Part shown: positions 5,355 to 32,219 of the stretch, one piece after another
Layout of the letters: every line of letters begins with the position of its first letter
Numbering within the stretch: position 1 is the stretch's first letter
NCBI GenBank assembly: GCA_964398655.1
Contig: CAYNNG010000001.1
Coordinates: 27,182-91,181 of the forward strand
Origin: an uncultured Oscillospiraceae bacterium
Lineage (GTDB): Bacteria > Bacillota > Clostridia > Saccharofermentanales > DTU023
Length of the DNA stretch: 64,000 bases
Direction of reading: 5' to 3'
Made by a program: the position numbers and the translations under genes
Notes under the pieces: model-generated
What the model was told of the DNA's origin: nothing
What the model saw: the letters and a program-made list of their open reading frames with translations, nothing else
The model's database searches: none

Positions 5355-6098
5355 CTAGTCTTCGTCAGCGTCCTCGGGCATATCCCAGTTATGCCAAATA
5401 TCGTTGACGTCTTCGAAGTCTTCGAGGTTTTCCAGGAGCTTTTCCATTTTGGCCTGATCTTCAGGATCATCCAGCTTGGTCATGGTCAGCGGCTTATAAT
5501 CCACGCTGCCATCCTCAATGGCGTAACCCATGTCTTGCAGGGCATTCATGACCTGGTGAAATTCGTTAGGAGCCGTAACTACTTCATAGTAGTTATCCTG
5601 TACGGTGATGTCTTCCGCGCCGGCATCCAGGGCTTCCAGCATGACGGTTTCATCATCAGGATAGCGCTCCTTATCCAGGATAATTGAGCCTTTCCGTTCA
5701 AACATGAAACCTACAGAACCTGACTCGCCCAGGTTACCGCCTGACTTGTCAAAAAGGTGGCGGACTTCGCCTGCGGTGCGGTTACGGTTGTCCGTCAAGC
5801 TACGCAGAATAACCGCTACACCGCCAGGGCCGTAGCCCTCATAGATCATCTCATCAAAGTCGGCAGAATCACTGCTGGAGGCCTTGCTGATAGAGCGGTT
5901 GATACTATCGTTAGGCATATTGTTGGACTTGGCCTTACGGATAGCATCTTCCAGGGCGCGGTTGGTGCTGGGATCGGGCCCACCATGCTTAACCGCCATC
6001 TGGATTTCTTTACCCAGTTTGGTGAAAATCTGGCCTCTGGCAGCATCTTGGGCACCCTTGCGGCGCTTGATATTATTCCATTTTGAATGTCCGGACAT
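5355..6098 (-). CDS. yebC: YebC/PmpR family DNA-binding transcriptional regulator
   Basis: MSGHSKWNNIKRRKGAQDAARGQIFTKLGKEI, the family-typical N-terminus. 247 aa. Confidence 0.92.
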   Translation of the reverse strand: MSGHSKWNNIKRRKGAQDAARGQIFTKLGKEIQMAVKHGGPDPSTNRALEDAIRKAKSNNMPNDSINRSISKASSSDSADFDEMIYEGYGPGGVAVILRSLTDNRNRTAGEVRHLFDKSGGNLGESGSVGFMFERKGSIILDKERYPDDETVMLEALDAGAEDITVQDNYYEVVTAPNEFHQVMNALQDMGYAIEDGSVDYKPLTMTKLDDPEDQAKMEKLLENLEDFEDVNDIWHNWDMPEDADED

Positions 6099-14137: not shown

Positions 14138-14290
14138 TCTCTTACCTCCTTATGTATTTAAATACCCCTCTCGCTCACCAGAAAGCGGAGGGGTACACGT
14201 AGTCCACATCTCCACCTCGGCCGGAATGTTTAAGGCATGGCCTCCGGCTGTCTTCGGCGATCAGGTGTATTTATGAAGTTAGGCGGGGAC
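14138..14290 (-). promoter_or_regulatory. Structured rplJ 5' leader (candidate L10-leader autoregulatory RNA)
   Basis: 153-nt rplA-rplJ gap. Contains the hairpin ACCCCTC..GAGGGGT (14164-14194) with an inner CGCT/AGCG stem just upstream of the rplJ RBS. Position matches the Firmicutes L10 leader. Not checked against a covariance model. Confidence 0.35.
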
Positions 14291-25716: not shown

Positions 25717-26646
25717 TTAGCTTAGGGCCATAAAGAGCAAGATCACCAGGCCCAGGGCAATGCGGTAATAGGCGAAGCCCCGGAAGGAGTGGCTGCGGAC
25801 GTAGGCTAAGAAATATTTAATCGTGAGCAGTGAGGTGGCAAAAGCTACCAGACAGGCTAGGAGCAAGGCTAAAAGTTCCATGCTGCTGGCAGACACGGAC
25901 AGGCGCAGGAGTTTGAGCAGGGAAGCTCCTGCCATGACCGGGATAGCCAAATAAAAGGAAAACTCCGAGGCCGCCGGCCGGCTAAGCCCCAAGACCAGGC
26001 CTCCGATAATGCAGGCGCCCGACCGGGAGACTCCGGGGAACACCCCAGCCAACATTTGGAAACAGCCGATCCAAAGCGCAATCTGCCAGGTAATTTGCCT
26101 ATGGTTGGTGATTGTGGGATTTTTGCCCTCCTGCCATCTTTCGACCAGCAAGAAGGCCAGGGCCACAATAATCAAGGCCAGGGCCACTGACAAGGGGTTG
26201 TAGAAATACTTTTCAAAGAATTCGTCTAAGAATACGCCCACAATGCCAGCCGGCACACAGGCCAGGAGGATTTTCCCCCACAGTGAGAGGATATCTAAAT
26301 CCCAAGCTAAATGGGATCCCTGCTTAGCTACACGGGGCGGCCTTGTATTGGTTGGACGCTGGGAGTTATAGCGGTTTTCCAGGCTCCTATGGCCATAGGA
26401 GCCTGGTCCTGCCAGACTGGCCTGACGCTTAAGCGGCCAGAGCTGGGGCCAGAAGTAGATGACCACCGCGAGGATCGCCGCCAGCTGGATGACGATACGG
26501 AAAAGGGCCAAAAAATCTGGAGACAGCTGCAGGGGCAGGAGGTTTTCCAGCAGGATAAGGTGGCCGGTGGAAGATACGGGCAACCATTCTGTAATGCCTT
26601 CCACTATGCCGTAGAGAATGAGTTTGAGAATTTCCCAGAGATCCAT
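25717..26646 (-). CDS. uppP: Undecaprenyl-diphosphate phosphatase (BacA/UppP) with a ~50-aa hydrophilic insert
   Basis: GIVEGITEWLPVSSTGHLIL..GVSRSGACIIGGL..EFSFYLAIPVMAGAS. The insert reads RQASLAGPGSYGHRSLENRYNSQRPTNTRPPRVAKQGS. Confidence 0.9.
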   Translation of the reverse strand: MDLWEILKLILYGIVEGITEWLPVSSTGHLILLENLLPLQLSPDFLALFRIVIQLAAILAVVIYFWPQLWPLKRQASLAGPGSYGHRSLENRYNSQRPTNTRPPRVAKQGSHLAWDLDILSLWGKILLACVPAGIVGVFLDEFFEKYFYNPLSVALALIIVALAFLLVERWQEGKNPTITNHRQITWQIALWIGCFQMLAGVFPGVSRSGACIIGGLVLGLSRPAASEFSFYLAIPVMAGASLLKLLRLSVSASSMELLALLLACLVAFATSLLTIKYFLAYVRSHSFRGFAYYRIALGLVILLFMALS

Positions 26647-27407: not shown

Positions 27408-28790
27408 ATGAACGAGATTGTGTTGGATACTGAGGAAAAGAGCATTTTTAAACGGCAATTTTGGGAGCTGGCCTACCCGAGTATTATCGCTTTTACCCTT
27501 CAGGGCTTTTACGACATCATCGACATGATGTGGGTAGGTAAAATTTCCAAGGAAGCTATCGCGGGGGTTACCCTCTTCTCCGTAATTTATGCCCTATTCG
27601 GGGTGCTGAATGAGGTAGCCGGCGCTTCTTCCGTCTCCATGATTTCCCAGTCCTACGGCCGCGGCACGGAAGAAAGAACCCAGACCATTTCTGAGCAGAC
27701 CATTTCTTTTAAAATCGTCCTGGCCATCATTACGGGAACCCTGATTTACCTGACCCTGGACCCTATTCTCAACTGGTTTTCTTCCGACCCCCTGGTCATC
27801 CAGGCCGCTAAAGATTACGGAATTATCCGCATCTTTGCCCTGCCTGTAGCCTTTTCCTCCTATTCGGTCAACACCATCTTTCGCTGCACCGGCGACTCTA
27901 AAACGCCCATGAAGATCATGCTGATTGCCACGGTCATCAACATGATCCTAGACCCCCTGCTCATGTTTGAAACCCTTACCATCGGCAGCCTAAAACTGCA
28001 AGGTTATGGCTTGGGTGTTTACGGAGCGGGCCTAGCCACGGTAATTTCCATCTGTATCTCCTTCGGCCTAGGCTTCTTCATCCTTGTAACCGGCCGTCGG
28101 GATGTGACCATCAGCATGCGGGGGCTCTTGCGTCTGGATAAGGAAATTGACCTTCAGCTCCTGTCCATCGGTCTGCCTGCCGGTGGCCAGCTCCTCATCC
28201 GTCAAGCCTTCAACACCCTGCTCATGGGCTTTATCACCTCTTACGGCACCCTAGCCGTGACCATCTTTGGCCTAGGCAACAAGCTGGTACAATTCTCCTT
28301 CTCCTCCATGGCCGGCTTCTCCTTTGCCGGATCCACCATGGTGGGTCATGCCTTGGGCCGCGAGCACGTGGAAGAGGCCTCCTACTTAGCTAGAGTTGCA
28401 ACTACCATCATTGTAAGCATCATTGGCACCATCGCCGGCCTCGCCATGATCTTCCCCGCCACTTTCCTGGGCTTCTTTAACAAAGATCCCGAAGTCTTAA
28501 CCGCAGGCAGCCCCATGCTCCGCTGGCTGGCCGGCTCCATGATAATCGCCGCCTTCGGCTCCGGCATGCGGATCGTCTTCTCCGGATCCGGCTTCAACCG
28601 CCCCGTCCTCATCTCCACCATCATCTCCCGCTGGCTGGTCCAACTCCCCCTCATGTATGTCCTAGTCAAGCTCCTGCAAGTCCCCCTCAACTCCCTCTGG
28701 ATATCCTTCGTAATCGCCGAGCTGGCCGACTTATCCGTGGTAATCTACTACTTCCGCCGCGGCGACTGGAAGCTAAAAAGGGTGGGCTAG
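27408..28790 (+). CDS. MATE family efflux transporter
   Basis: 460 aa, about 12 TM helices, with the typical N-terminus (FWELAYPSIIAFTLQGFYDIIDMMWVGKISKEAIAG). Confidence 0.88.
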   Translation: MNEIVLDTEEKSIFKRQFWELAYPSIIAFTLQGFYDIIDMMWVGKISKEAIAGVTLFSVIYALFGVLNEVAGASSVSMISQSYGRGTEERTQTISEQTISFKIVLAIITGTLIYLTLDPILNWFSSDPLVIQAAKDYGIIRIFALPVAFSSYSVNTIFRCTGDSKTPMKIMLIATVINMILDPLLMFETLTIGSLKLQGYGLGVYGAGLATVISICISFGLGFFILVTGRRDVTISMRGLLRLDKEIDLQLLSIGLPAGGQLLIRQAFNTLLMGFITSYGTLAVTIFGLGNKLVQFSFSSMAGFSFAGSTMVGHALGREHVEEASYLARVATTIIVSIIGTIAGLAMIFPATFLGFFNKDPEVLTAGSPMLRWLAGSMIIAAFGSGMRIVFSGSGFNRPVLISTIISRWLVQLPLMYVLVKLLQVPLNSLWISFVIAELADLSVVIYYFRRGDWKLKRVG

Positions 28791-29048
28791 GTTAGCTAAT
28801 GATTAGGCTCGCTTAGGGACTAGGCTAGCAAATGGATTGGGTGCGCTTAGCTCAAGAACTACCTCACTGCTAGCCCAGTTATTTATAGTCAATCTAGCTC
28901 AAACTGGGTTTTGCACACCTTTTTTGAGGCTGCGAAGGCCCCTGGGCGCCAGATTTTGGTTGGCAGATTTGCGCAAACTGGGTTTTGCACACCCTTTTTT
29001 GAGAGCCCGGTTGTGTAAGCCTTCTCAGATTGTGGAAACACCCATAGG

Positions 29049-29177
29049 TTTTTGAGGCTTGCCAACTTTATAGGCCGAGAACTCCCTGAGCAGTCAATGG
29101 TCTGAGACCGCATAGCTGCGCCGCGGCGCCATTGACTGCTCAGGGGCCTCGGCCTTAGGTTAAACAAGCCTCAAAAA
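29049..29177. repeat. 129-nt nested palindrome with three perfect arm pairs
   Basis: TTTTTGAGGCTTG (29049-61) pairs with CAAGCCTCAAAAA (29165-77). GGCCGAG (29073-79) pairs with CTCGGCC (29148-54). CCTGAGCAGTCAATGG (29085-100) pairs with CCATTGACTGCTCAGG (29129-44). The loop contains the palindrome CGCCGCGGCG. Confidence 0.85.
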
Positions 29178-29296
29178 CTAAGTCCAGCATAAGTGCGTTA
29201 ATTGCGCATGATCATGCGTGTTGTAGGCTTGCGATTGAATCTAATATTTAATCTTAGAATAGTTGGAGGATGGCATATTTGGGTTTTCCGCGCACG

Positions 29297-29334
29297 TATA
29301 AAAGGGGCTGCCTCGTGTTCAAGGCAGCCCCTTT
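29297..29334 (-). terminator. Rho-independent terminator downstream of ppdK (bidirectional shape)
   Basis: AAAGGGGCTGCCT (29301-13) pairs with AGGCAGCCCCTTT (29322-34). The minus-strand hairpin is followed by TTTTATA. Confidence 0.7.
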
Positions 29335-29546
29335 GCATTGGGTTACTTTCGTCTTTGGGCTTGTGTGGGCTAAGGCTTATGCAAGCCAAGCCACTAGTGT
29401 AGTGCAAGCCTAGGCAACAATGGTAGAACTAGACTGCTAATGCATGGTTACCTGCAGTGCTTAGAGGTTTAGCTGACGCTTAGCCTGCGGCGGCTGCAGT
29501 TGATGATGCATAGATGCAATGCAGCTAAGGCCCCTGCTTATACAGC

Positions 29547-32219
29547 TTAGCCTTCGATTCTGTGGCGGCCGTGCTCACGGAAGTCGACGGAGACGTAGTC
29601 TCTTGGCTTCTCAATTTGAGCTTGGGCGGCGGCCAGGATGGCGATAGGCACGCGGTAGGGTGAGCAGGATACGTAGTCGAAGTTCAGGTCGTGGCAGAGA
29701 TGGATGGATGAAGGTTCGCCACCGTGTTCACCGCAGATACCCAGATGGATATTGGGTTTGACTTCTCTGGCTTCCTGAGAGCTGATCTTGACCAGACGGC
29801 CTACGCCCTTTTGGTCCAGGATAGCGGTAGGATCGTTCTCGAAGATGCCCTTCTTGTAGTAGGTATCAAGTACGCGGCCGGCGTCATCGCGGGAGAGACC
29901 ATAGCCCATCTGGGTCAGGTCGTTGGTGCCGTAGGAGAAGAAGTCTGCGTGCTGGGCGATCTCGTCAGAGGTCAGGGCAGCGCGAGGAATCTCGATCATG
30001 GTGCCTACCAGATAGTGGAGTTCTTGGCCAGATTCTTTGATCAGCTGGTCAGCCTTTTCGGTAATGATCTTGCGCAGGAATTCCAGTTCCTTATCGACAG
30101 ATACCAGGGGTACCATGATTTCGGGGTAGACCTTGATGCCTTCTTTTTGTACGTTGAGGGCAGCGGAGATAATAGCTTCTACCTGCATCTCAGCGATTTC
30201 GGGGAAGACGATGGCCAGACGGCAGCCACGCATACCCAGCATGGGGTTGGCTTCGGCCAGGCCGTTTACAACACGCTTGATGTCGTCCAGGCTGAGGCCC
30301 ATGGCATCGGCGAGTTCCTTCATCTCAGGTTCTTCGTGAGGCAGGAATTCGTGCAGAGGGGGATCCAGGAGACGGATGGTAACAGGCAGGCCCTTCATGG
30401 CGCGGAAGATACCTTCGAAGTCGCCTCTTTGGATGGGCAGGATCTTAGCCAGAGCAGCTCTTCTCTCTTCTTCGTTCTTGGCCAGAATCATTTGACGGAA
30501 TTCAAAGATACGGTCTTTTTCGAAGAACATGTGCTCGGTACGAACGAGGCCGATACCGCCAGCACCCAGTTCCAGAGCCTTAGCGGCGTCCTTGGGTGTA
30601 TCAGCGTTGGCGCGAACGTTCATCTGACGGGTTTCGTTAGCCCAGTTGAGAACTTGGGAGAAGTAACCGGAGATGTGGGCTTCCACGGAGGGGATTTCAC
30701 CAGCGTAAACTTGGCCAGTGGTACCGTCGATGGAGATCACGTCACCCTTGTTAAAGGCTAAGTCTTTGAGATAGGCCTTACCGGCAGCTTCGTCGATGGT
30801 GAGGTCGGCACAGCCAGAGACACAGCACTTACCCATACCACGGGCTACTACAGCAGCGTGGGAGGTCATGCCGCCACGAGCGGTGAGGATACCTTCAGAA
30901 AGGTTCATGCCTTCGATATCTTCAGCGGAGGTTTCCAGACGAACCAGGATTACCTTCTTACCAGCTTCTTTGGCGACGCGGGCTTCTTCTGCGCTGAAAA
31001 CAATTTGTCCGGAAGCGGCACCAGGAGAAGCAGGCAGGCCCTTGGCGATGGGCTCAGCCTTCTTGAGGGCAGCTTCATCAAACATGGGGTGGAGGAGGGC
31101 ATCCAGGCTCTGAGGATCAATCTGCTGGAGGGCGCGTTCCTTGGTGACTATGCCTTCTTCAACCATTTCTACTGCAACTCTCATTGCGGCCTGAGCGGTA
31201 CGCTTGCCGTTACGGGTTTGCAGGATGAAGAGTTTGGAGCGCTCAATGGTGAATTCCAAGTCTTGCATGTCGCCATAGTGTTTTTCCAGGCGCTTAGCAA
31301 TGTCAGAGAACTGGTTGTAGATGTCTACGTTCCAGGTCTTCATTTCTTCCAGGTTGATAGGAGTGCGTACGCCGGCAACTACGTCTTCGCCCTGAGCATT
31401 GATCAGGAATTCGCCGTAGACCTCATTTTCACCGGTGGCAGGGTTGCGGGAGAAGGCTACGCCGGAACCGGAGTCATCGCCCATGTTGCCGAAGACCATC
31501 TCTTGAACGTTAACAGCAGTACCCCAAGAAGCAGGGATATTGTGCATTTGACGGTAGTAGATAGCACGGGGGTTGTTCCAAGAACGGAAAACAGCTTCTA
31601 CAGCTTCAATTAACTGGGTCTTGGGATCTTGAGGGAAGTCTTCTCCCTTGATCTCTTTGTAGCGGGCCAGGGAGGCTTGGGCTACTTTTTCCAGGTCGTT
31701 AGCGTCCAGCTCGGTATCTTCGGTAACGCCCTTGGCTTTTTTAGCTTCGTCCATTAAGGCTTCAAATTCGTCTTTGTGGACTTCCATGACGACGTCAGAG
31801 AACATCATGATAAAGCGGCGGTAGGCGTCGAAAGCAAAGCGGCGGTTATTGGTCAGAGTGGCTAAGCCTTCTACTACTTCGTCGTTAAGACCCAGGTTGA
31901 GGACAGTGTCCATCATGCCGGGCATGGAGGCACGGGCGCCAGAACGGACGGAAACCAAGAGAGGATTTTCTTTATCGCCCAGGGTTTTACCGGTCTGTGC
32001 TTCGAGCTTATGGAGATAGTCAAAAATTTCTGCTTGAATTTCGTCAGAAATTTTTTCACCATGTTCGTAGTAGGCCAGGCAGGCTTCTGTAGAAACTGTG
32101 AACCCATTAGGCACAGGTAAGCCTAAGCCAGTCATTTCGGCCAGGTTAGCGCCTTTACCACCGAGCAGTTCACGCATTGAAGCGTTACCTTCGGCAAACA
32201 TATAAACAAATTTTTTCAT
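29547..32219 (-). CDS. ppdK: Pyruvate, phosphate dikinase
   Basis: 890 aa. MKKFVYMFAEGNASMRELLGGKGANLAEM, phospho-His loop GGMTSHAAVVARGMG, C-terminal PEP-utilising TIM domain. Confidence 0.96.
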   Translation of the reverse strand: MKKFVYMFAEGNASMRELLGGKGANLAEMTGLGLPVPNGFTVSTEACLAYYEHGEKISDEIQAEIFDYLHKLEAQTGKTLGDKENPLLVSVRSGARASMPGMMDTVLNLGLNDEVVEGLATLTNNRRFAFDAYRRFIMMFSDVVMEVHKDEFEALMDEAKKAKGVTEDTELDANDLEKVAQASLARYKEIKGEDFPQDPKTQLIEAVEAVFRSWNNPRAIYYRQMHNIPASWGTAVNVQEMVFGNMGDDSGSGVAFSRNPATGENEVYGEFLINAQGEDVVAGVRTPINLEEMKTWNVDIYNQFSDIAKRLEKHYGDMQDLEFTIERSKLFILQTRNGKRTAQAAMRVAVEMVEEGIVTKERALQQIDPQSLDALLHPMFDEAALKKAEPIAKGLPASPGAASGQIVFSAEEARVAKEAGKKVILVRLETSAEDIEGMNLSEGILTARGGMTSHAAVVARGMGKCCVSGCADLTIDEAAGKAYLKDLAFNKGDVISIDGTTGQVYAGEIPSVEAHISGYFSQVLNWANETRQMNVRANADTPKDAAKALELGAGGIGLVRTEHMFFEKDRIFEFRQMILAKNEEERRAALAKILPIQRGDFEGIFRAMKGLPVTIRLLDPPLHEFLPHEEPEMKELADAMGLSLDDIKRVVNGLAEANPMLGMRGCRLAIVFPEIAEMQVEAIISAALNVQKEGIKVYPEIMVPLVSVDKELEFLRKIITEKADQLIKESGQELHYLVGTMIEIPRAALTSDEIAQHADFFSYGTNDLTQMGYGLSRDDAGRVLDTYYKKGIFENDPTAILDQKGVGRLVKISSQEAREVKPNIHLGICGEHGGEPSSIHLCHDLNFDYVSCSPYRVPIAILAAAQAQIEKPRDYVSVDFREHGRHRIEG

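Follow-up and report, generated by a model that had tools for sequence, protein, structure and literature searches.

ERIC/IRU elements of enterobacteria and Correia (CREE) elements of Neisseria are imperfect palindromes of about 100-155 nt that form long hairpins, lie between genes or in 3' untranslated regions (3'-UTRs) in both orientations, and keep the complementarity of their stems. RUP of Streptococcus pneumoniae is linked to the insertion sequence (IS) IS630-Spn1. The pneumococcal repeats BOX, RUP and SPRITE are considered to be probably parasitic, and their secondary structures may act on genes transcribed together with them (Croucher et al., PMC3049150). Here we describe a palindromic element of 131 nt, referred to as the hairpin, in an uncultured Oscillospiraceae bacterium. 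It lies between the convergent genes for a MATE efflux transporter and for pyruvate phosphate dikinase (ppdK) in a stretch of 64,000 nt of contig CAYNNG010000001.1 (positions 27,182 to 91,181), which we call the window; coordinates given without a label are those of the window, and labels such as L019 denote the loci and contigs compared with it. We conclude that the gap between the two genes is probably a mosaic of decaying non-coding repeat modules that accumulated at a permissive site, with the hairpin as a member of an IS-associated repeat family. It thereby falls into an ordinary category of bacterial genome litter: a new IS-associated palindromic repeat family together with a decayed tandem repeat in a hypervariable spacer.

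By analogy, the hairpin family resembles the ERIC/IRU and Correia elements in length, fold, position, occurrence in both orientations and retained stem complementarity. It has no sequence similarity to ERIC or Correia, and its host is an uncultured member of the Eubacteriales. None of the Correia features (26-bp terminal inverted repeats (TIRs), TA target duplications and IHF sites) was found here. Whereas ERIC has no known parent IS, the hairpin family is physically linked to an element of the IS30 family, designated ISx. The literature on comparable IS30-derived or Clostridia repeats, and on the congener described below, yielded nothing specific.

The hairpin is built from three nested pairs of perfect arms: an outer pair of 14 bp (29048-29061 / 29165-29178), a middle pair of 8 bp (29072-29079 / 29148-29155) and an inner pair of 17 bp (29084-29100 / 29129-29145). 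Asymmetric internal loops separate the pairs, and a 28-nt apical region (29101-29128) carries CGCCGCGGCG at 29119-29128. The original prediction, made from the sequence alone, had described a 129-nt element with arms of 13, 7 and 16 bp; it was right that all the arms are perfect, and only the lengths had to be corrected. Folding yields a minimum free energy of -84.5 kcal/mol for the plus strand and -84.9 kcal/mol for the minus strand (z of -9.9 and -9.6, respectively). None of 200 shuffled sequences folded as well, which places the structure far beyond chance.

Further members of the family were sought by an exact scan for both 11-nt arm cores at a spacing of 92-122 nt, in one genome per species from 185,579 species. 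The scan returned 12 loci, 10 of them on nine contigs of a single metagenome-assembled genome (MAG), 'Clostridiales bacterium W0P39.007' (SFFI01), a congener of the window organism; the other two loci and one viral match have no further similarity and are due to chance. At least 10 W0P39.007 copies match the window element from end to end (75-81% identity), and family copies score 126-165 bits with a covariance model. They occur in both orientations in long non-coding regions, beside such unrelated genes as those for MarR, DUF5058, a periplasmic binding protein, GDH, UvrA and a DEAD helicase, among others. Additional genomic copies had been named in the original prediction as the check on a MITE, a miniature inverted-repeat transposable element; those found in the congener, in both orientations, in unrelated intergenic contexts and linked to an IS30-family element, speak for the MITE-like part of that proposal. 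Its other part, that solo terminal-repeat remnants lie nearby, is not supported, the motifs in question belonging to a separate 74-nt family.

Since the asymmetric internal loops are conserved, the element has a polarity and its orientation can be read. With the covariance model, the window hairpin scores 130 bits on the plus strand versus 67 on the minus strand, and the copy at the orthologous locus of W0P39.007 (L019) scores 139 bits on the minus strand versus 74 on the plus strand. The L019 hairpin sits about 120 nt from the ppdK terminator, like the window copy, yet in the opposite orientation. The L018 copy has an inversion confined to its apical 30 nt, which run opposite to the outer loops. 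A half-hairpin, or 'solo end', is found at L011:5051-5169, and in L013, L016 and L017 the similarity to other copies ends exactly at the right arm.

The stems have been maintained to a greater extent than the rest of the element. The 14-bp arms GTTTTTGAGGCTTG / CAAGCCTCAAAAAC do not vary among the 11 copies, and neither does the inner core GTCAATGG / CCATTGAC. In the alignment of 11 sequences, 96.2% of the cells are paired, and seven pairs have changed on both sides compared with 1.6 ± 1.0 in shuffles (0 of 500 reached this number) and with at most two when the partners were slid. The covariation check proposed at the outset thus came out in favour of the fold, although it is not specific to RNA, because a DNA palindrome can gain compensatory changes by correction between its arms. 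Between the window copy and the W0P39.007 consensus, identity is 85% in paired and 61% in unpaired columns (differences at 15% and 39%, respectively), and the window copy carries 5-6 compensated double substitutions. Fourfold degenerate sites are 55-65% identical between the window and W0P39.007, so neutral DNA is near saturation, and unpaired columns have therefore evolved at about the neutral rate while the stems were maintained. Contigs of the window species itself carry an almost identical gap and are thus too close for comparative analysis. Possible causes of stem maintenance are selection at the level of the element, arm-to-arm correction of an extruded or recombining palindrome, or a structural role; the second is consistent with the flipped forms seen. 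The mean folding energies of the two strands are -73.8 and -71.4 kcal/mol, and the strand asymmetry of folding and of G-U content is weak and inconsistent. As both strands fold about equally well, the data single out no RNA.

The link to ISx came from the surroundings of the congener's copies. Next to each of the 10 W0P39.007 copies, and always on the same side, stands a conserved module of about 100 nt with a sharp outer end (...ACTTTTTCACTTTAGC). Contig L038, which is 1712 bp in length, starts with GCTAAAGTGAAAAAGTAAGTTCCACACC and ends with its exact reverse complement, forming perfect 28-bp TIRs, and these ends identify the 'left module' as the left terminal repeat of ISx plus subterminal sequence. 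The L014 hairpin is situated about 70 nt upstream of the open reading frame (ORF) for a 422-aa transposase, which matches Pfam HTH_38 and reaches 76 bits with NCBIfam transpos_IS30, just below the cut-off of 80. A transposase 94% identical to that of L014 (P0241) is encoded on contigs that consist essentially of ISx alone. ISx thus shows the characters of the IS30 family: an IS30 transposase with a helix-turn-helix domain, 28-bp TIRs and a length of 1712 bp. We located copies at L038:1-1712, L037:159-1870 and L014:1-1751. L008 and L010 retain both sides of the transposase gene and are missing about 1.25-1.33 kb with different breakpoints; they look like transposase-less deletion derivatives, as in the classic relation of a MITE to its parent IS. 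No obvious target duplication was seen at the L037 copy, and in the sister genome the boundaries are blurred by adjoining modules. Public data contain more than 4000 homologues, the majority on contigs of 1.6-2 kb, a pattern that points to a widespread group of ISs at which assemblies break.

The hairpin and ISx are separable. The ISx copies of L037-L039 (93.5% identity) lack 130 nt exactly at the hairpin site, with ...ACAGGTTTTGAGGCTT directly joined to CCCTCATCC..., and the IS homologues of L040-L043, whose transposases are 58% identical, have no hairpin either. Because the hairpin is present in the leader of ISx in W0P39.007, missing from ISx elsewhere (in another metagenome) and alone in the window, it is a separable cassette. 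Its 14-bp arms are distinct from the 28-bp TIRs of ISx.

How far the cassette is a MITE depends on the feature considered. It is 131 nt long, non-coding and bounded by inverted arms, its family shares sequence with a transposase-encoding IS, and dispersed copies number at least 10 on nine contigs in the congener W0P39.007, against one in the 64-kb window; no target-site duplication was found and the window copy is without the IS ends, so that it qualifies as a MITE in the strict sense only in part. IS-derived MITEs such as RUP of S. pneumoniae and MITEAba12 are similar in being small, non-coding and intergenic, in both orientations and with IS ends, and in being multi-copy, as the hairpin family is in the congener. 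In contrast, the window copy consists of the internal hairpin only, without the ends of ISx; its arms are not transposon terminal repeats, and no target-site duplication was seen. In addition, the parent of the hairpin family belongs to the IS30 family, unlike the IS630-Spn1 of RUP.

The window hairpin is one member of an interspersed palindromic repeat family that, in the congener, is lodged in the 5' leader of ISx (1712 bp, 28-bp TIRs) and in its transposase-less derivatives. In our model, the cassette would spread by riding on ISx and the MITE-like derivatives, mobilised by the IS30-type transposase, and may have come to the present site in this way. Recombination or mismatch correction between its own arms would keep them perfect and could flip the element. 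The T-rich motif beside it is a relic of two to three units of the separate 74-nt family, which co-localises with the hairpin family. The hairpin would then have no host function as such; any host effect is probably incidental, with a block to read-through and stabilisation of the 3' end of the MATE transcript as candidates.

The 74-nt family is represented in the window by decayed units. The 20-mer CAAACTGGGTTTTGCACACC occurs exactly twice, at 28900 and 28974, with a period of 74 and a chance expectation of 0, and it is enclosed by a direct repeat of 51 nt (D1, 28875-28925 / 28949-28999) with 76% identity. The 30-nt T-rich motifs at 28900-28929 and 28974-29003 lie inside the two decayed units. 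They had been reported as a triplicate: two copies are real, and the degenerate third copy is in fact the left terminal arm of the hairpin. Unit 1 and the hairpin arm have only 11 nt in common, TTTTTGAGGCT, an identity that may be due to chance or to local conversion. The segment 28868-28999 is 63-70% identical to 74-nt arrays in L017, L013 and L016, namely a 12.2-copy array with 86% match at L017:3082-3980, about seven units at L013:601-1166 and about three units at L016:7628-7846, each array being 400-500 nt from a hairpin; L033 has one single unit. An intact unit contains a 9-bp stem, GGTTGGCAA/TTGCCAACC, followed by CTTTTC, and this stem is lost in the window units. Spurious ORFs of 100-140 aa run through the L017 array.

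Two more module families occur in the relatives. In one, imperfect palindromes of the form CTGTGGAAA-N(15-20)-TTTCACAG recur about every 62 nt and are accompanied by scattered CATGTGAAAT motifs; the CTGTGGAAA/TTTCACAG modules are found at L017:4180-4480, L013:1300-1540 and L016:7250-7520 and in the L033 spacer, and are similar to the TGTGGAAC...TTTTTCAC stretch of the terminal repeat of ISx and, loosely, to DnaA boxes. The other, TTGCA(A/G)(C/G)TAATGG(G/A)TG(G), occurs in direct and inverted copies, often beside the hairpin or ISx fragments, at L019:1930-2060 and 5420-5560, L011:4900-5040 and L010:960-1427 and in the L033 spacer. The combination of the hairpin, 74-nt units, GTGGAAA...TTTCACAG and TTGCAnCTAATGGGTG recalls the BIMEs of E. 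coli, the NIMEs of Neisseria and the pneumococcal BOX, in which distinct short modules are likewise joined in variable order, number and orientation in long spacers that code for nothing. A difference from those systems is that the 74-nt module is repeated in true tandem arrays, with up to 12 units. The modules are also unrelated to theirs in sequence and far longer than REP units, and no transposase of the RAYT type is implicated.

The arrangement of these modules in the gap, with its boundary genes, is as follows.

27408..28790, plus strand: gene for a MATE efflux transporter, left boundary of the gap (Pfam MatE PF01554, E=6e-45).
28791..28867, no strand assigned: MATE-proximal filler with many short TAG/CTAG-containing motifs.
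28868..29022, plus strand: two decayed units of the 74-nt tandem-repeat family, unit 1 at about 28875-28948 and unit 2 at about 28949-29022.
29023..29047, no strand assigned: short junction from the repeat units to the hairpin, maybe a truncated third unit or a trace of an IS left-end module.
29048..29178, plus strand: palindromic repeat element (the hairpin cassette), 131 nt, with perfect arm pairs and homology to the family.
29179..29296, no strand assigned: spacer with the 14-nt palindrome CGCATGATCATGCG at 29205-29218.
29297..29334, minus strand: intrinsic terminator hairpin of ppdK with a perfect 13-bp stem, conserved beside ppdK.
29335..29546, no strand assigned: filler of about 190-210 nt from the ppdK stop codon to the terminator, with no counterpart in L019.
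29547..32219, minus strand: ppdK, pyruvate phosphate dikinase, right boundary of the gap (Pfam PPDK_N, PEP-utilizers, PEP-utilizers_C).

As the original prediction stated, the gap between these convergent genes is unusually long (756 nt, 28791-29546) and holds no credible ORF; its ORFs do not exceed 92 aa and none has a Pfam match. The filler at 28791-28867 resembles none of the repeat modules found in the sister genome and is weakly similar solely to the MATE-proximal spacer of L033 (z=3.5), and the filler at 29335-29546 is weakly similar to the ppdK-proximal filler of L033 (z=3.4); in L019, the terminator lies within about 20 nt of the ppdK stop. The junction at 29023-29047 looks, by eye, like unit 2 and like the left module of the IS, but neither likeness is statistically significant. 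The spacer at 29179-29296 has no similarity to any repeat module or relative. In the gap as a whole, CTAG and TTAG occur 4-5 times as often as they do on average in the window, and the 400-nt bins densest in motifs of this type are 29201-29600, the richest of the window, and 28801-29200. Motifs of the GCTTAG, GCTAAG and GGCTAG type crowd the filler at both stop codons (28791-28870 and 29335-29546), and similar motif-rich filler flanks the same genes in L033 and L005. Two independent metagenome contigs of the same species, L002 and L004, end inside the gap, at the equivalents of 29296 (just before the terminator) and about 28938 (after unit 1), respectively, where repeats or sequence heterogeneity may break their assembly.

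Comparison of the locus among relatives showed the spacer to be hypervariable. L019 has VanZ (87% aa identity), MATE (92%, L019:517-1899) and PpdK (96%) in the same order as the window, and PpdK of L033 is also 96% identical to that of the window. The spacer between the two genes is different in each of the genomes compared.

L035, an outgroup (MATE 66%, PpdK 71%): MATE-ppdK spacer of 57 nt.
L034 (MATE 67%): spacer with an FGGY kinase and LrgAB.
L006 (MATE 87%): HsdR and a protein kinase after MATE, with ppdK not reached within the locus.
L019, orthologous, from the congener: spacer of 4.1 kb that encodes an ABC exporter besides two small ORFs.
L033 (PpdK 96%): non-coding spacer of 1168 nt with other repeat modules and without the hairpin.

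Between the window and L019, only the ppdK terminator and the hairpin are still recognisable in the spacer. The 57 nt of the outgroup and the differing content in each relative mark the site as a hotspot of insertion and turnover and not as a conserved regulatory region. A synteny breakpoint, considered from L005-L007, was dropped, because L019, L033, L034 and L035 keep MATE and ppdK linked. At L006:7431-12120, a type I restriction HsdR and then a Ser/Thr protein kinase follow MATE, which suggests a defence-island-like insertion at the same hotspot.

The terminator itself has a perfect 13-bp stem and an 8-nt loop (29301-29334). Its T-tracts are short, TTTT on the ppdK strand and TTT on the MATE strand, and a consensus terminator scanner made no call, the T-tract being too short for its rule. 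The region 29290-29360 matches L019:5945-6012, beside ppdK, with 79% identity over 71 nt, and an equivalent hairpin is present in L033, so that the structure is conserved beside ppdK in two related genomes. With a stem-loop, a T-tract, a position at the 3' end of a gene and conservation in orthologues, 29297-29334 qualifies as an intrinsic terminator, and it may also act on read-through from MATE. Of the 'strong bidirectional terminator' put forward earlier, the stem and its conservation are real. The perfect palindrome CGCATGATCATGCG (29205-29218), which had also been singled out, is present and unremarkable: perfect palindromes of at least 14 nt number six in the window versus 4.3 ± 1.9 in shuffles, a frequency at chance level, and CGCATGATCATGCG is not found in the orthologous spacers.

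Several observations weigh against the reading of the gap as a repeat mosaic that holds an IS-associated hairpin. Hairpin-less ISx keeps GGTTTTGAGGCTT at the site, and insertion, inverted duplication or deletion are all possible there. When the flanks of the window hairpin were compared with the left and right modules of ISx on both strands and evaluated with shuffles, the similarity was not significant; neither an IS left-end module nor a transposase remnant is detectable at the window copy, and no target-site duplication flanks it. The other 63 kb of the window yielded no second copy to patterns with up to three mismatches, blastn-short, module blast or the covariance model; multi-copy status in the genome of the window species itself is what we infer. 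Matches to the pattern of arm plus inner core in JGI metagenomes, 12 in number, are all due to chance and none is palindromic, three scans of viral contigs gave two chance matches (L020 and L036) or none, and PLSDB plasmids and INPHARED phages gave no match in distant mode. The hairpin family has so far been seen in two species only. Mobility of the hairpin, and of ISx, is no more than presumed. Lastly, stems that are better conserved than neutral sites would fit a host function too.

One alternative is that the hairpin itself is mobile, a small palindromic MITE or foldback-type element that entered the ISx leader and the MATE-ppdK spacer in separate insertions, by means of an enzyme recognising 14-18-bp terminal inverted repeats or the hairpin form. 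Such an element would account for terminal arms that are invariant in every copy, for the absence of the cassette from otherwise 93.5%-identical ISx copies and of ISx sequence around the window copy, for the similarity in L013, L016 and L017 that stops exactly at the right arm, and for the two orientations, at the orthologous site included. Yet all 10 copies in W0P39.007 keep the left end of ISx on the same side, as hitch-hiking predicts; hairpin-less ISx retains the arm-like GGTTTTGAGGCTT and is without a further 15 nt, which leaves no clean empty site; and neither a target-site duplication nor a candidate enzyme was found. We therefore hold independent insertion to be unlikely. A bolder version, to which we would give little credence, has the hairpin as a self-maintaining invertible cassette with flip/flop isomers produced by recombination between its arms, which would move from replicon to replicon (to the leader of an IS in one genome, to a chromosomal spacer in another) by an undescribed bacterial hairpin or foldback mechanism and be retained as a read-through insulator. 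If this were true, it would shield genes downstream of it, such as that for the transposase of the IS or the convergent MATE and ppdK.

The conserved stems also bear on a second alternative, in which the host keeps the hairpin as a structured RNA or DNA (a 3'-UTR stabiliser, a read-through insulator between MATE and ppdK, or a small RNA, sRNA) and its spread is secondary. The hairpin and the terminator are indeed the sole parts of the spacer recognisable between species whose fourfold sites are 55-65% identical; the difference between paired and unpaired columns, the compensated double changes of the window copy and the extremely stable folding all agree with such a role, and within ISx the hairpin separates the end of the IS from the start of the transposase, a place that would suit an insulating hairpin. 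However, the Rfam covariance-model scan, run on the window at the gathering score and on the gap at E<=10, found nothing relevant, 6S RNA included (noise of at most 17 bits in the gap), no sigma-70-like promoter was called in 28600-29750, and no terminator belongs to the hairpin itself. At the orthologous locus the hairpin faces ppdK the other way round, L033 does without it, the two strands of the hairpin fold about equally, the W0P39.007 copies gather uncompensated mismatches, and correction between arms, acting on the DNA, is enough to account for perfect arms with no function involved. The suggestion of an sRNA, a 6S-like RNA or another protein-binding RNA thus found no positive support, with no Rfam match, no promoter and no constant orientation, and we judge a host-kept role distinctly improbable. 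The gap could also be the decayed remnant of genes that once stood between MATE and ppdK, with the palindrome and the repeats being of local origin, given that the spacers of relatives carry an ABC exporter, HsdR with a kinase, or FGGY with LrgAB. Yet when these proteins and the transposase of ISx were compared with the gap by tblastn, only noise resulted (best E=0.07 over 756 nt), the gap ORFs have no Pfam match, and clear homologues of the hairpin and of the 74-nt units are found at many loci not linked to one another, so that neither is of local origin; a gene remnant is largely refuted and in our view very improbable.

Two known kinds of repeat were considered and rejected. Like an integron attC site, the hairpin is an imperfect palindrome of about 130 nt in which unpaired spacers part the paired boxes and the apical portion varies; its arm ends are GTTTTTG / CAAAAAC and not the GTTRRRY / RYYYAAC core sites, and neither the window nor the 10 sister-genome loci that were examined contain an integrase or a cassette array. 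A CRISPR array was dismissed for the 74-nt repeats, since the whole unit is conserved (86% over 12 units in L017) with no variable spacer.

With the gap read as a mosaic of repeat modules, the region is litter of mobile repeats and calls for no annotation as a new RNA gene. What has been defined here, in an uncultured Eubacteriales lineage, and is at present missed by annotation pipelines, comprises the hairpin family with its covariance model, the 74-nt family, and an IS30 element with and without the cassette; all three probably break metagenome assemblies. The residual interest, which specialists in mobile DNA may share, lies in a separable cassette in the leader of an IS, with inverted and partly inverted forms and with stems conserved well above the neutral rate. 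Such stems make the hairpin a small natural system in which the upkeep of long palindromes in bacterial DNA can be studied.

Some minor observations concern the rest of the window and the boundary genes. No tRNA or tmRNA was detected in the 64 kb, and the sole Rfam match at the gathering score is an L10_leader (RF00557) at 14150-14275 on the minus strand (49.7 bits). The nearest named homologues of MATE are from Treponema (about 50-53%) and those of PpdK from MAGs of Eubacteriales/Clostridia (about 65-70%), a split that could reflect horizontal transfer of MATE or database sampling. A Treponema origin of the window was rejected, since PpdK, synteny and the congener MAG point to the Eubacteriales/Clostridia. 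The longest perfect palindrome in the window has 28 nt (CCAGGCTCCTATGGCCATAGGAGCCTGG, 26379-26406) and lies inside the ORF for BacA, an undecaprenyl-diphosphatase (25717-26646, minus strand).

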